Below, piece after piece: positions 27,001 through 33,000 of a stretch of 64,000 bases of DNA. The DNA comes from Alkalispirochaeta sp. (GTDB lineage: Bacteria > Spirochaetota > Spirochaetia > DSM-27196 > Alkalispirochaetaceae): the NCBI GenBank assembly GCA_965242725.1, contig CBDESZ010000025.1:64001-128000 (forward strand), read 5' to 3'. A program made the position numbers. The stretch's first letter is position 1; every line of letters begins with the position of its first letter.

Positions 27001-30000
27001 TCGCCGTCCACAACCCCGATCCGGCGGTTCTTTCCCGCCCTCCCGAAGGGATATATCCCATTCATGGTGATACGGTCCCGTCGGCGTACGAGTCCGTTCG
27101 CTACGACGGCGCGCGGCAGCTGCTCCATCTTTCCTGGTATATCGAGAATGACGATGAGACGGTGCGGTTCGACTATTCCCTGCGGATGTTCTTTCCCCTC
27201 GAAATCGTTGCGTTACTTGAGTGGTGCGGATTCCGCATCGTGGCGCAATACGGCTGGTATGACCGATCTCCCTTTGTCGGGGAGAGCGGAACTCACATCA
27301 TCGTCGCTCGGAGGGACTGAAAGTGACGCCGGGCGTACTCCCGGTACCGTCCGGCGGAACGCGGAAGATCGGCTATCTCTTCCGGGCGCAGCTTCCGTAT
27401 CACCTTTGCAGGAACGCCGGCGACGAGGGTGCCCGTCGCAACCTCCATACCGGGAGGAACGAGGGCACCGGCGGCGACCATGGCGTGGGTGCGAATAACC
27501 GCACCGTCCAGAACGGTTGCGGAGATACCGACAAGGGTCTCGTCCTCCACGGTGCAGCCGTGGAGACGGGCCGCGTGTCCCACCGTCACCCGGTTTCCGA
27601 TGGAGAGGGGAAATCGATCGTGGGTGACGTGGAGCACGCTGTTGTCCTGGATATTGGTTTCATCTCCGATACGAACCCAGTGGACGTCGCCCCGAATGGT
27701 GCAGTTGTACCAGACGGCGCTTCCCCGTCCGATATGCACGTCACCGATAATGCGCACTCCGTCAAAGACGAAGGCATCGTCCGCAATCCGGGGGTGGAGC
27801 AGATCGCCTGACGCCGTCTCATAGGCGGCTACCGTCGCCTGCGGTGAAACCCATCCTCCCATCGTTGTCTCCCCCTAGGCCTGAAAGATTGCGCGACAGT
27901 TCTGTGCCCGCAGCGTCAACTGCTCCAGCAGTTTCCATCGGACAATAGGAATTTTCTGAACCTCTTCTCCGGGAACACGGTAGAGTCTGACATCGCCGCG
28001 GGCGATATACGTGAAGGAAAAGTCCGTCTCTCTGATGATCTCGGCCTCGCCGATACCTTCAAAGGGGCCGGCTATTCCCACCCTTTTTTCGCGACAGTAG
28101 ATATCTACCGTCCCGTCGATGATGAGCAGAAGTTCCCCGCCGGTGGTAAGAGTTTCTCCCGCGGGGACGCGCAACTCCGTGAGTGTCTGGGCAATTGCAT
28201 TGATATTCTCCCCGGAAATACGGTCACCCAGAAGGTACGTACCTTCGAGGAAGTACTTTCGCGTGAGATGTTCCGTCACCGTTCCGCCAAGACCGTTGCG
28301 TTCTATTAGGGAGCGGTACATCTCCCCGGGAATCTCCAGTACCCTGACAAAACTACCGGCACGATAGGTCCGGCGCGTCGGTTCTCCCGCCAGAACCGCG
28401 TGTTCCCCGATCATCGAGCCGACGGTAAGGGTGTTCCGGGTATCCATTTCCGCATCGAGAATCTCCACCAGACCGTCGATGACCAATAGCACGGTGCCGG
28501 GCACCATATGGCGTTTCACAAGGATGGTACCGATGCTGTAGGTGACGGTCCGGCAATTTGCCACCATCTTGACGTCGTAGTCGGGAATATCCCTGAAGTT
28601 GTGACGAATGAGGGTAGTCACGCGGTGTTCAGGGCCGCCGTCATTTCCCCTTATCAATACGTCGGCCATGCCGAAAGAGGTATCCGCACCGATTTCCTTT
28701 TGTTTCAGCGTCAACGGCGTCGAAACGTGGCTCAGCACGATCCGTTCCGACTCATCGTCACGAAAATCCTCGGCGTTGCCGTGAATCATACCGCCGCCGA
28801 TGTCCAGTTTCTTGACGTGAACGGGAGTGAAATAATTCTTCTTCACCTCCGTCGCCAGGGCGACACTGACGGGATCATCCTTTCTGGTCAGCGAATCGAG
28901 CTGGTCGATGGAACAGATATCGGCGAAATGTGCATATGTCCGGTATCCGTCATGCCAGAGGGCGCGAAAAAACATTACCGTCGTCTCTACGGGGTGGGGT
29001 GAGAATACCGGCTTCACCTCAAGGCCATCGATCATATTCCACTGATTCATCGTCAGATCCCGTGGAATGAAAAAACGGTCAAACTCCTCTTCCGGAAAGG
29101 ACATGAGGGCTGAGAGTTTCTTCATCACTGAATGACGGACCTGGGGCGCCGCGTAATAAGGCAGCCGATGGTCCGCCCTGACAAGGGAGGTCAGACCGGC
29201 AAAATGGTCGTCGTGGGCGTGGGTATGAAAGATTCCGTCGATTTCATTGACGCTCATTCCCAGGGAATTGAGGGTGTGAATAACGCTCGGACCCGCATCC
29301 ACCAGGTAAATCCGCCCCTGGAAGACGACAATGCTCGCCATGCATGGACGGTTGATGTCCCATCCGTCACCTTCACCGGTATGGACGATGGAGAAATAGT
29401 CCCGTTTTACCTTCTGCTGCCCAAGGATGTAGGGGGGCTGATAGTGTTCCGTCCGGTCCAGATTGAGGGAGACCTCCTCGTAGTCACCGGCATGGGAAAT
29501 ACGATAGGTGTTGAGGGCGACCCGTTCTATATGAACTCCGGGAATGATTGAGACCGGCTCATTTTCAACAACGATGAAATCGATAAGCTCGTCGGGTCGA
29601 CGGATCTTGCCGAAGGCGAAGGCCGTTTTGATGCGCATGTATTCCTTCGCAGTCGTCTCGTCCACGCCGGCTTCCATCAGCTCTTCGAGGGAAGCCAGTC
29701 CGTAGTTACCACGGAAGATGTACTCTTTCTGCGCCGCGATCTGGTCCCGGGAACCTATAATTATCGGTTTTTTTCCGTCATTGTTGGGGTGGTCGGGGAT
29801 GATCATCCCCTGTCGATAAAGCATCTGGAGAACGGGGAACTCCGCAAGGTTGGAAAACTCTCCGTTCTGGATATTTACATCCGAGAGAAGTATTGCGTTG
29901 GGTCCCGATTCATAGGAGACGCCGCCGCGTTCAATCGAGTTTATGTAACCCCGTCGCATGAGGTGTTTCACGGTATCGGCGGGAGTTCCACAGAGGATTC

Positions 30001-33000
30001 GCAGATCCGCCGTGTGTATGTCGACCCAGTATACGCCCGTTGTAACTTTTGACTTCTTCACCACCTACCCTCAAATGAAATGTAGACCGGGGAGGCGGCA
30101 ATTTCAAGGCGCAACGCGGCGCGCACACCGGTCCGGGGCGGCTCCGGAAGAGGCGCCGTCGGTCTACCAGCCGACCGTCAGCTCCAGAAGGTGTTGTTCG
30201 CTTTCACGGCGTACCGCGTCCGGCAATGCAGGGAAAAAGGAGAGAACTTCTTCAAAGTGGGTGCGGGCGTTGTCACGGTCTCCCATGGCGAGGTAGGTGC
30301 TCGCCAGGGCGAATGTGGTCAAATAGTCTGAACCGTCAAGTTCATGGGCTTCCTTAAGGAGCTGAAACGCCTCGGAGCCGCGTTCGGTTCGACTCAAAAG
30401 GACGCTGAGATTGCGCAAGACGCTGGCGTTGCGGGGGGCACATGACCGGGCGTGACGAAGGTGGTCTTCCGCCTCACGGTACTCCCGTTTTCTCAGATAG
30501 GCGCAGCCCAGCGCCTCCCACGCTTCGGCGGTCTCTTTCTCCCGGGACACGTAGTAGCCCAGTGCCTTAATCGCCTTGTCATTCTCGCCGTTCTCGGTAT
30601 AGGCGATTCCCACGTTCAGCATCGCGTGGAGGTCCGTCGGATCATCGGCCAGAACGGTGTTGAGAAGGTCGATCGCCTCTGCGTACCGCCCCGTCCGGAG
30701 AAGGTGTTCCGATTCTGTGATACGGTCCCGTACTTCCATGGGAAGAAGCTACGAATAACATACCATTCAAGTCAATAATCAACTCCTTTTCGGATCGTCC
30801 TCTTCCGCGTATAGTTGCCTTATGGTGGCGATTCTTCTCATCGGGGACGAAATTCTCTCCGGCAGCGTCAAAGAGGCAAATCTGTATCCCATGTTGACGA
30901 CTCTCAATTCTATCGGATACGGCATTGGAGAGGTGCGCATCGTCCGTGACGACGTCGAAGAGATCGCTTCCGCATTTCGGGACCTCCGGGAACGGTATGA
31001 GTATGTGGTGAGTTCAGGGGGTATCGGACCGACCCACGACGATATTACCATCGAGTCCGCGGCGGAGGCCTTCGACGTTGCCGCCGAAGAACATCCCGAC
31101 ATGATCGCCTTTCTGGAAACGCGTTACGATCTTCCCCTCTCTCCCATGGTCCGCAAGATGGCACTCCTTCCCCGGGGTACCGAGGTGCTCGGCTGCCGGG
31201 AAGGTCAGTGGCCGGTCATACGGTGGGAGAATGTCTTCATTCTGCCGGGGCTTCCCAGAGCGCTGCAGGACAAGATGGAGCGCCTCGCTTCACTGCTCCC
31301 CGGACGGGACAGAATGTGGACCGCCGAGCTCTATCTCAATGTCGATGAGGGGCTCTTTGCCGACTGGCTTGAGGAACAGCAGCGCCTCGCCCCGTCGGTA
31401 TCCATCGGCAGCTATCCCGTGTACGGAGATTACGACTACCGCGCCCGCATCACCGTCCGGGGTGTGAACCGGGACGTCGTTACCCGGGTATTTCGTGACC
31501 TTCGCGCCGCGGCGAATGAGCATGGATGGCTCATACGGGTGGGGGGAGACGTTGATGAGTGACGATGTGTTGATGTCGGTGACGATTGACCTGGAAGACG
31601 TCCCGTCCGTGGAGGAGGGACGCTTCCGTACCGAATGGACAGGCGTGCTCCTTCATGGCTTTGGCGCGACCGCCAACGATCTGGTTCCTCTGGCGCCGGA
31701 GCTTGCCGTTGCACGACGGTGGGTGTTTCCCCACGCGCCGGTGCCGATAACCGTTGCGGGTATGTCCTATGGACGAGCGTGGTTTCCCCGGGAGGGGGAA
31801 CACCTCCAACAGGCGCTCTTCGGTACCTATTTCCAGAACCTCCGCGCCATGGAACCTGAAGGTCTTGCGGAATCAGCCCGGGCGGTACGGAACCTTCTGG
31901 ATGAACGGGGAGTACGATGGGATCGGCTCATCCTCGGCGGGTTCAGCCAGGGGGCGATGGTTGCGGCGGAGCTCCTGCGTCAGGGTGCATCGAATCCGGG
32001 ATTGCCGTTGCCCGCCGTCGCGCTGCTCTTTTCCGGCGCCCTCATCGCAGAGTCATGGTGGAAGGAGCCAGGTTTGGTCGACTCGGCGCACCACGGTGCG
32101 TCGCCGGCGGTCGGGGACGGACGTGCCGCCGCCGACGGCTCGGGGGCCCCGGCGCCGGAAGACGTGCTCGTTTTTCAAAGTCACGGTACCGACGACAGCA
32201 TCCTTCCATACTCCGAGGGGATCGCCCTGTCCCGGGTACTGGGAAACGCAGGATTTAATGTGAACTTCGCCGAGTTTTCCGGTGGTCACGAAATTCCGAC
32301 CTCCATCGTTACCCATATCGCAGGGGTGTTGGCGGACCGTCTCATGTAGCCATCTGTCAGCGGGCCTCCCGGGCGGAGCGGCCCCGAATGCAGCGGCTCC
32401 GAATGCAGCGGCCCCGGGCGGAGTAAAGCCCCCAACGATGACGACCGAAAATCAAAGGGCAGATGGAAAAAAGTATAGTCCTGGCCGTCGACGATGATCC
32501 GGTTCAAATACGGATCATAAAGACCGCGGCGTCGAGGCTCGAGTATCCCTCCATAGAAGTGGTAGGTGCGCAAAGTGTCACCGAAGCACTGGAGATTCTT
32601 GAAGAACGACCGGTCGATCTGGTCCTTACCGACCACCGCCTTCCCGACGGAACCGCCTATGAGGTGGTACAGAAAAGCATCTCATTGAACCCGCTGGTGC
32701 CGGTTGTGGTCATCACCGCATTCGAGTCGGTTGAAGACGCCGTCGGCCTCATGAAGAAGGGCGCCAGGGACTATATCATCAAGCCGATCCGGCCGCAGGC
32801 AATACAGCGAATTCTCATCACGGCGCTCGAAAACCGGCGACGCATGCAGGATGTGCAGGATGTAACTTCCCGGAAGAAGGACGGCGGCGATCAAACCACA
32901 CTCCGGCGAAAAAAAATGCCCGAGATCAGCGATACCACCTCCGACGCAATGCGCCGAGCCCTCAGTATCGCCTCCCGTGCGGCGGGAACCGAGTCGTCGG

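Follow-up and report, generated by a model that had tools for sequence, protein, structure and literature searches.

A spirochaete metallo-β-lactamase protein with degenerate cyclic-nucleotide-binding domains, a probable divergent bacterial relative of the Dictyostelium GbpA phosphodiesterases

The window, a stretch of 64,000 nucleotides from contig CBDESZ010000025.1 of Alkalispirochaeta sp. (GCA_965242725.1), holds a gene for a 728-aa protein (the query) that had been annotated initially as an Apyc1-type cyclic-nucleotide (cNMP) phosphodiesterase fused to tandem cNMP-binding domains (CNBs) like those of the PKA regulatory subunit (PKA-R). The locus raises the question of which metallo-β-lactamase (MBL) family the query and the bacterial family around it (the query clade) belong to, what the enzyme may hydrolyse and what may control it.

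The gene, its domains and its surroundings

The gene was confirmed as real and intact: one complete ORF occupies 27875-30061 of the minus strand (729 aa if counted from the GTG at 30064) and is the single strong copy in the host genome. Its features are listed in table 1. Pfam models matched at 239-324 (Lactamase_B/B_2) and in two cNMP_binding stretches, and the AF2 model had a pLDDT of 92.8 and a pTM of 0.91. Homologue searching returned 3340 sequences at E ≤ 0.001 among 8000 scored, among which the query is a minimal form with no added sensor domain. In its C-terminal helix P705, W709, K710 and E713 were each conserved in at least 97% of 120 near members. The position of a sigma-70-like match just upstream of the start, and position alone, is suggestive; such matches were not above chance (2 sites found, 1.5 expected).

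Table 1. Features of the query gene, in window coordinates (residue numbers refer to the 728-aa protein).
Feature	Position	Strand	Remarks
Whole query gene	27875..30061	minus	728 aa: predicted dead MBL + live MBL + CNB-A + CNB-B + C-terminal helix
Sigma-70-like promoter match	30079..30107	minus	just upstream of start, 9/12
N-terminal domain, residues 1-205	29447..30061	minus	metal-free, MBL-like, highly conserved; putative pseudo-dimer partner
Catalytic MBL domain, residues 222-470	28652..29398	minus	RNase Z/PhnP/YhfI/Apyc1 phosphodiesterase branch
Metal motif H281-A-H283-D284-D285-H286	29204..29221	minus	HxHDDH variant; GbpA-type clade mostly HCHADH
D420...H427 pair	28781..28804	minus	aligned with acidic residue/His pair of GbpA-type and Apyc1-family enzymes
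CNB-A fold, residues 477-590	28292..28633	minus	PF00027 best stretch 506-589
Degenerate phosphate-binding cassette of CNB-A, residues 552-568	28358..28408	minus	G552/E553 retained, Thr562 at Arg position
CNB-B fold, residues 617-702	27956..28213	minus	degenerate cassette, as in GbpA-type clade; 27.4 bits, borderline
C-terminal helix, residues 705-726	27884..27949	minus	helix in model; runs on into hemerythrin in fused relatives

The neighbours of the query gene are housekeeping genes. A conserved operon was ruled out over 80 loci and the window, where the neighbours (TPR, CinA-like, esterase, hexapeptide, methyltransferase and G6PD genes) recurred almost only in Alkalispirochaeta/Spirochaeta-type loci and the large neighbourhood clusters consisted solely of the query gene and its opposite-frame shadows. 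Cyclase genes were absent from the flanks of the 80 loci (about 1 expected at the density of the host genome), the profile having detected at least three independent cyclase domains as a control. The host genome (92% complete) has seven domains of class III cyclases and 20 CNB matches. PF02112 matched nothing in it and PF23023 nothing above the cut-off, and a second strong match to the query family was not seen.

Family assignment of the MBL core

The full two-metal site that had been reported for the catalytic domain was borne out, all metal ligands being present. In a diverse set of 63 full-length members, 62-63 kept H281, H283, D284, D285, H286, H356, H378, D381 and H445. By analogy with the family, two metals would be bound by H281/H283/H356 and by D285/H286/H445, with D381 bridging. 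D420 and H427, which the earlier description did not include, were each present in 62 of the 63 members; they would form an acid pair, presumably with a general-acid role as in RNase Z and PhnP.

The PF23023 (Apyc1) tag was indeed precomputed on all 120 listed homologues, and 31 of the 120 carried hemerythrin by hand count, as had been said of the relatives. Apyc1-family membership itself did not hold. The query scored 20.3 bits where the cut-off is 50, a sub-threshold match of about 50 residues; none of 44 further query-clade members reached the cut-off (best 29 bits), and controls gave 120 and 258 bits for true Apyc1-family proteins and 20.2 for the GbpA orthologue of Dictyostelium. The Apyc1 family was ruled out for the query clade by these scores and controls, and the precomputed 'anti-Pycsar' tags on its proteins are misleading. 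Among the 25 NCBIfam matches listed no equivalog exceeded its cut-off, the best being RNase Z at 37.8 against 293.

Apyc1 and YhfI, class II MBL cNMP phosphodiesterases, resemble the query in having the nearest solved catalytic fold and an HxHxDH two-metal site, which passages of PMC9117128 describe for the cNMP-cleaving Apyc1. The catalytic domain matched Apyc1, a Brucella MBL, YhfI, PqqB, PhnP and RNase Z with Z scores from 24.2 to 21.2. The top three matches were Apyc1 (Z 23.4-24.2; the best with rmsd 2.5 over 221 aligned residues), the next families following at 22.1-22.7, and Apyc1 was also the top PDB match when the catalytic module was compared by profile (42 bits). The fold is nearly equally common to the non-cNMP enzymes PhnP, PqqB, RNase Z and arylsulfatase (Z 21-22.7). 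Identity to Apyc1 is 17-19%, with PF23023 below its cut-off. Apyc1, which cleaves cCMP, cUMP, cAMP and cGMP, is a single-domain protein of about 250 aa, described in passages on it as a homodimer in which a loop completes the partner's pocket, whereas the query has 728 aa with a putative dead MBL copy in the same chain, and even the shortest complete clade members (467-483 aa) include the N-domain.

Much closer homology was found with the GbpA-type phosphodiesterases. The domain design and substrate-activation mechanism of the Dictyostelium proteins have been known since 2002. Dictyostelium GbpA (PdeD/PDE5) and GbpB (PdeE), class IIb, have the domain order of the query and are collinear with it from N-domain through MBL to the two CNBs. 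With hhalign, the query-clade profile matched the bacterial GbpA-type profile at 99.8% over 671 columns (residues 5-713) and P0279, taken as the Dictyostelium GbpA orthologue by database names and length and not a curated entry, at 97.8% over 524 columns; pairwise, the query and P0279 were 23% identical over 379 aa from the MBL into CNB-A (E 1e-13). The catalytic-domain profile scored 129-137 bits with clade 2, 60-95 with GbpA-type proteins, 32-37 with RNase Z-like proteins, and 20 and 31 with Apyc1-family proteins. Leptospira sister proteins are named cAMP/cGMP-dependent 3',5'-cyclic-AMP/GMP phosphodiesterase by NCBI, and some proteins of the GbpA-type clade are fused to guanylate cyclase or class I PDE domains.

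Metal ligands, the acid/His pair, a weak PF23023 score and a degenerate CNB-B are common to the GbpA-type proteins and the query. The query clade is nevertheless separate: identity is about 17-23%, the motif is HxHDDH and not HCHADH, the CNB-A Arg is lost, and it has extra conserved N-domain loops, CNB-free forms and receiver, CHASE2, GAF, HAMP, solute-binding and hemerythrin fusions. In the catalytic-domain tree the query clade, clade 2, GbpA-type and Apyc1 formed four supported groups with an unresolved branching order among them; 20 query-clade members grouped together (99/100) on a long stem branch (1.44), outside 17 GbpA-type rows (100/100).

Residues 1-205, a conserved domain that the earlier description did not cover, appear to be a second, dead MBL copy arranged as in long-form RNase Z (ELAC2/Trz1), itself a tandem of dead and live MBLs. 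Long RNase Z aligned structurally across query residues 1-471 (361-385 residues, rmsd 3.9-4.4) with a TM-score by query of up to 0.55, against at most 0.40 for single-domain MBLs, which aligned over about 200-235 residues only. Internal duplication was not detectable when the N-domain profile was compared with that of the query's own C-domain (0.1%), so that the case for duplication is a structural one. Unlike long RNase Z, to which identity is 9-14%, the query clade has CNB and sensor fusions, and the live domain of the query lacks the insertion found in short RNase Z between motifs III and IV; the two duplications are probably independent. Within the live domain no tRNA-binding flexible arm was seen. 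The N-domain is homologous to those of sister clades (98.9% by profile with clade 2, 24.5% with GbpA-type) and contains conserved clade-specific loops; an ESM Atlas search with residues 1-222 gave scores all under 0.9.

Degenerate CNBs and exchangeable fusion partners

Conservation differed sharply along the chain. At the 90% level among the 63 members, 75 positions were conserved in the two MBL copies (27 in residues 1-205 and 48 in the catalytic domain) against three in the CNBs, two of them in CNB-A and none in its cassette. The tandem CNBs matched profiles of Plasmodium PKG (E 2e-30) and yeast Bcy1 (E 1e-11), with a structural Z of 16.1. As in PKA-R and PKG, then, the fold is that of tandem CNBs, the rest of the query chain being a hydrolase. 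The PKA-R-like description holds for the fold and goes no further, since both domains lack the phosphate-binding Arg.

In pairwise alignments Thr562 occupied the position of the Arg of PKA-R, PKG and GbpA, and Phe681 that of CNB-B, whose Arg is also absent from the GbpA-type proteins aligned. The CNB-A Arg was present in 0/120 near and 2/57 distant members, in all 16 bacterial sister-clade proteins (12/12 + 4/4), in 3/3 dictyostelid proteins and in 50 of 71 filled columns of a long GbpA-type set. An alignment-free cassette motif was found in 2/120 (both in CNB-B) and 0/61 members. G552/E553 were retained in 116 of the 120 near members, E553 dropping to 24/63 in distant ones, and T565-Y566-R567-A568 in 106-119 of 120; the query has Arg at both 563 and 564, positions at which Arg occurs in 17 and 52 of the 120, respectively. 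Because of E553, T565-Y566-R567-A568 and this Arg pair, CNB-A may still bind something. A precedent for CNBs using another ligand is the cAMP-independent trypanosomatid PKA-R (6ftf), also a structural match, which binds nucleosides.

In some relatives the MBL core stood alone; in others it was joined to receiver, CHASE2, GAF, HAMP, solute-binding or hemerythrin domains. Nine CNB-free members of 467-483 aa retained the N-domain, and five of them ended at the same column. In P0193 the degenerate pair is followed by a third CNB, whose Arg is intact. P0425, a kinase/PAS fusion and the sole homologue above 1274 aa, was excluded from the fusion list since its first approximately 140 family residues are missing, which looks like a deletion or misassembly. 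Cyclase fusions were absent from the query-clade members scanned. Two to four paralogues were present in four of five genomes tested.

Proposed function, alternatives and implications

On the preferred reading, which has a probability of about 0.55, the query clade would be a bacterial group that diverged within the GbpA/PdeD ('class IIb') superfamily, and the query a cNMP phosphodiesterase of a sensor-controlled family, cNMPs being its putative substrate. The activity initially annotated is retained as the most likely one, on the grounds of full-length GbpA-type homology and not of Apyc1 membership. The protein would be a cytoplasmic, chromosomal binuclear-metal phosphodiesterase, most likely hydrolysing 3',5'-cAMP and/or cGMP and ending the second-messenger signal. 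Its dead MBL copy would substitute for the second subunit that Apyc1 needs, an arrangement backed by the long RNase Z alignment, and the conserved N-domain loops may help to shape the substrate pocket. With the Arg lost, both CNBs are probably past canonical cNMP sensing, and the pair may serve as a packed arm with a regulatory role or may take up some other ligand. Across the family, activity would be set by the exchangeable inputs observed as fusions. Control by O2 is plausible in the hemerythrin forms; it is not applicable to the query, which has no hemerythrin. Literature searches found no experimental or biochemical study of the query clade, including amb1682 and the hemerythrin-fused Magnetospirillum forms, and none turned up on the Leptospira sister proteins.

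The active site differs from that of GbpA: D284, H378 and K417/K418 are extra, and the acidic residue has no His in front of it. The enzyme may therefore have moved to another substrate, for instance to a 2',3'-cNMP, a cyclic or linear dinucleotide, a nucleoside polyphosphate or a sugar cyclic phosphate, the protein still being a signal output. This is possible, if tentative: the clade-specific invariant basic or polar residues near the motifs (K315, H378, K417, K418, D284), the N-domain loops, the long stem branch, the closeness of PhnP, PqqB and RNase Z in fold and the lack of a cyclase nearby in 80 loci point to it, but the closest sequence relatives are GbpA-type and clade 2 proteins with intact CNB-A, the GbpA-type clade has guanylate cyclase and class I PDE fusions, and P0193 bears a canonical extra CNB. 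It is rather unlikely that the dead and live MBL core is an unrecognised bacterial signal-output domain, like EAL or HD-GYP, acting on a nucleotide messenger other than cAMP/cGMP, with the Arg-less CNB-A reading a new ligand. The inputs on that reading would be phosphorylation, periplasmic ligands, GAF and O2/redox, and the ligand of CNB-A might be a nucleoside or the reaction product.

Control of the query by its own substrate, as originally proposed, is doubtful. The mechanism would not be new, since passages of PMC11988041 already describe GbpA and GbpB as phosphodiesterases with an MBL and two cNMP-binding domains, activated by their own substrate. Activation through CNB-A by a non-canonical phosphate contact would fit the architecture collinear with GbpA, the retention of G552/E553, the frequent Arg at 563 or 564 and the confident domain packing (pTM 0.91); we nonetheless think it improbable given the missing canonical-column Arg, the near-absence of the cassette motif, the erosion of E553 and of the cassette in distant members and the existence of CNB-free members. 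An Apyc1-type nuclease directed at Pycsar signals, either as anti-defence or to damp defence, is very improbable. The structural and profile matches to Apyc1 speak for it, as does the chromosomal location of most Apyc1 given in passages of PMC11724313. Against it stand the PF23023 scores, the housekeeping neighbours and the absence of any PADLOC match below E 0.01. Searches of viral and plasmid sequences speak against it too, as well as against an origin in phages or plasmids, which was rejected: a close-relative pattern scan of viral contigs gave no relative, 50,697 phage records none over 18% coverage, and 72,556 plasmids none at E ≤ 1e-10.

For the preferred reading, a sensor-controlled cNMP phosphodiesterase, the surprise is limited, as domain design and substrate activation were already known from Dictyostelium and the bacterial sister clade is so named in NCBI. 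Particular to the query clade, as judged from sequence, are the lost CNB-A Arg and the wiring of relatives to many sensor domains. Many spirochaetes, magnetotactic bacteria and anaerobes have several class III cyclases together with cNMP receptors, and the host genome combines its seven cyclase domains with no recognised class II phosphodiesterase. If it is a cNMP phosphodiesterase, the query family could supply the 'off' arm that is missing from such cyclase-rich lineages, and the hemerythrin forms of Magnetospirillum (e.g. amb1682) would tie cNMP turnover directly to O2/redox in an organism amenable to genetics.

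Gene, family and metal site

The gene is intact, and its product was found by Pfam to carry an MBL motif region and two cNMP_binding stretches (table). The AF2 model, built from 77 sequences, was compact and confident (pLDDT 92.8, pTM 0.91). The nearest named relatives of the host, a member of the Spirochaetota, were Alkalispirochaeta and Spirochaeta. Of 8000 proteins scored, 3340 matched at E ≤ 0.001, and every one of the 120 best homologues (near members) at E ≤ 3e-221. A genome scan confirmed at least 558 of 584 candidate stretches, and the 80 loci kept came from spirochaetes, magnetotactic Alphaproteobacteria, Magnetococcales, SAR324, Nitrospina, Desulfobacterota, Syntrophomonas and others; the initial annotation had described a large cross-phylum family. 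The metal-site residues named there were conserved in 62–63 of 63 diverse full-length members.

Coordinates of the gene and of features in the window and in related loci and proteins
Feature	Location	Strand	Observation
MBL + two-CNB gene	window 27875–30061	−	Intact ORF, 728 aa
MBL motif region	residues 239–324		Pfam
PF23023 match	residues 244–293 only		Below cut-off
NADPH-supply cluster	window 22044–26553	−	G6PD, 6-phosphogluconolactonase, malic enzyme, thioredoxin-reductase-like gene; common to close relatives
Secreted-looking genes	window 34083–38866	+	PapD-like chaperone, 559-aa protein without Pfam match; resembles chaperone-usher pilus cluster; two genes recur in loci L003, L008, L009
Apyc1-family gene of a spirochaete (genome G069)	L126:1429–2286		True member, 120 bits; flanked by isocitrate dehydrogenase-like and tyrosyl-tRNA synthetase-like ORFs (named by eye)
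Long family member	L043:2753–7456		1567-aa open frame; no Pfam match in the roughly 700 residues that precede the core; may be read-through
Extension of homologue P0193	residues 730–1167		Canonical CNB domain, then about 300 residues without Pfam match, behind degenerate CNB pair

Relationship to Apyc1 and GbpA

The catalytic domain had been assigned to the Apyc1 family, a label that the fold favoured and the profile did not support. The PF23023 match scored 20.3 bits, and none of 44 further members reached the cut-off of 50 bits either (best 29 bits); genuine PF23023 proteins taken from two other genomes as controls gave 120 and 258 bits, and P0279, a Dictyostelium citrinum protein taken as the GbpA orthologue from database names and length, 20.2 bits. 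The tag therefore marks a generic HxHxDH region. In structural comparison the catalytic domain matched three Apyc1 chains best (Z 24.2, 24.1 and 23.4; rmsd 2.5; 216–221 residues aligned), with a lead of about 1–2 Z units over a Brucella nucleotide-bound MBL (3md7), YhfI, PqqB and PhnP. Apyc1 ranked 14th in Foldseek, where RNase Z, YhfI and an arylsulfatase had E-values much like its own, and no GbpA-type structure was seen among the structural matches listed.

Dictyostelium GbpA and GbpB consist of an MBL domain joined to two CNB domains. Passages of PMC4758236 and PMC8684759 agree with this architecture. A profile of the CNB-free core was searched across 150 other Spirochaetota genomes and found the window clade in 7, with weaker matches to long open frames in about 67 by hand count (58–195 bits; mostly 700–870 aa). 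Among 22 weaker matches inspected, 4 carried HIHDDH (clade 2, a bacterial sister group) and 18 HCHADH or HTHADH, one of the latter being named cAMP/cGMP-dependent phosphodiesterase in Leptospira records; used as a query, this GbpA-type protein returned proteins of dictyostelids, oomycetes, ciliates and algae, and several of these bore names derived from GbpA/DdPDE5.

Against the bacterial GbpA-type profile the window family gave an alignment of 671 columns (residues 5–713, 99.8%), and against P0279 one of 524 columns (97.8%), the single-sequence comparison giving 23% over 379 aa. Its catalytic-domain profile scored 129–137 bits with clade 2, 60–95 with GbpA-type proteins, 32–37 with RNase Z-like proteins, and 20 and 31 with two Apyc1 controls. 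A 47-row tree contained four supported groups (window clade 99/100, GbpA-type 100/100, clade 2 99/99, Apyc1 100/97) and left the branching order among them unsettled. By these alignments, profile scores and groupings, the window family forms a clade of its own within the GbpA superfamily and is no orthologue of GbpA; its catalysis is probably like that of GbpA.

Clade 2 proteins (L091–L094, in genomes G005, G017, G118 and G083) were about 710 aa long, lay in sequence between the window family and the GbpA type, and had several paralogues in G005. GbpA-type proteins (L095–L112; P0398 cluster) were almost always present in family f15 of the phylum sample (one was identified as Leptospira) and common in other spirochaetes; their identity to proteins of dictyostelids and oomycetes was about 40%, and no paper on them was found in the literature searched. 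Long GbpA-type proteins with a guanylate cyclase or class I phosphodiesterase domain in the chain were also seen (P0318, P0323, P0349, P0363; P0317, P0386), the named ones being eukaryotic.

N-terminal and CNB domains

Positions conserved in at least 90% of 63 members numbered 27 in residues 1–205, 48 in the live MBL and 3 in both CNBs together. E74-F75-P76, H91-N94 and R117-G121 are among those of the N-terminal domain. The strand and helix order of the N-terminal domain repeats the first two-thirds of an MBL domain, and long-form RNase Z aligned across residues 1–471 (361–385 residues, rmsd 3.9–4.4), single-domain MBLs aligning over about 200–235 residues from about residue 220 on. The metal motif was absent from the N-terminal domain, and profile comparison of this domain with the live MBL did not pick up the duplication (0.1%). 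Its profile was linked to the N-terminal domains of clade 2 (98.9%) and weakly to those of the GbpA type (24.5%, E 8e-4, 161 columns). Apyc1 is described, in passages of PMC9117128 and PMC11724313, as a homodimer whose subunits each extend a loop into the partner's pocket; we infer that the dead MBL copy may take this partner-loop role within one chain.

The phosphate-binding Arg of CNB domains, whose role is established, aligned to Thr562 (CNB-A) and Phe681 (CNB-B) in comparisons with PKA-R, PKG and the GbpA orthologue. In CNB-A it was present in 0/120 near and 2/57 distant members (62 sequences entered, of which 60 aligned and 57 filled the column), 12/12 bacterial GbpA-type, 4/4 clade 2 and 3/3 dictyostelid proteins, and 50 of 71 filled columns of the long GbpA-type set, 43 more rows being gapped there. 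An alignment-free motif of our own design occurred in 2/120 near (both in CNB-B) and 0/61 distant members, 12/12 bacterial GbpA-type, 4/4 clade 2 and 52/118 long GbpA-type proteins, and 9/17 other CNB domains of the host genome. Nine members of 467–483 aa had no CNB, and five of these shared a single end column in the alignment, evidence against truncation. In P0193 a third CNB is appended, and its cassette is intact. The missing CNB-A Arg and the CNB-free members speak against the earlier proposal of control by the enzyme's own substrate; cNMP binding has probably been lost. Pointing the other way, E553 and the T-Y-R-A stretch were kept in 106–119 of 120 near members, the window's protein has Arg at 563 and 564, and the CNB-B Arg was also missing from aligned GbpA-type proteins. 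CNB-A might recognise a different ligand or hold cNMP in an atypical manner.

Proposed function and sensor fusions

We consider the window's protein, at a probability of roughly 0.55, to hydrolyse 3',5'-cAMP/cGMP as a two-metal phosphodiesterase; its chain would form an internal pseudo-dimer and carry a degenerate CNB arm, and across the family the sensors would be exchangeable. A bacterial sister clade is already annotated as a cNMP phosphodiesterase; a shift to another nucleotide substrate is a tentative alternative that appears to us clearly less probable. Activation by substrate as in GbpA would accord with the domain architecture and proposed feedback already published for Dictyostelium; with the CNB-A Arg missing we regard it as doubtful. 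An anti-Pycsar role, towards which the Apyc1-like fold might point, seems very improbable, and no relative was found in the viral, phage and plasmid sets searched. A literature search, subscription papers and primary 2002–2003 papers aside, returned only a review and no paper on the window clade.

The host genome (92% complete) held 7 class III cyclase domains and 20 CNB matches, and no PF02112 or above-cut-off PF23023 match, class III CpdA-type phosphodiesterases lying outside this search. No cyclase gene was present in the flanks of the 80 loci. The neighbours of the window's gene (TPR protein, hexapeptide-repeat protein, methyltransferase and G6PD) were common almost only to close relatives.

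The hemerythrin fusion described initially was found at the C-terminus in 31 of the 120 best homologues, and Magnetospirillum amb1682 is one hemerythrin form; no sensor is fused to the window's copy. In several hemerythrin tails (among P0048, P0054, P0072, P0079, P0082, P0085, P0088 and P0107, by eye) Gln takes the place of one of the iron-binding His residues, and some of these forms may therefore not sense O2. Receiver domains were fused in P0122, P0130, P0144, L019 and L029, and the three receiver sequences inspected have an Asp as acceptor; other fusions involved CHASE2 (P0126), GAF (P0145), solute-binding family 3 (P0137, L133) and HAMP (L040). Four of five genomes tested had 2–4 paralogues. 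This pattern of fusions and paralogues would be typical of signalling enzymes, and the fused domains may regulate activity.
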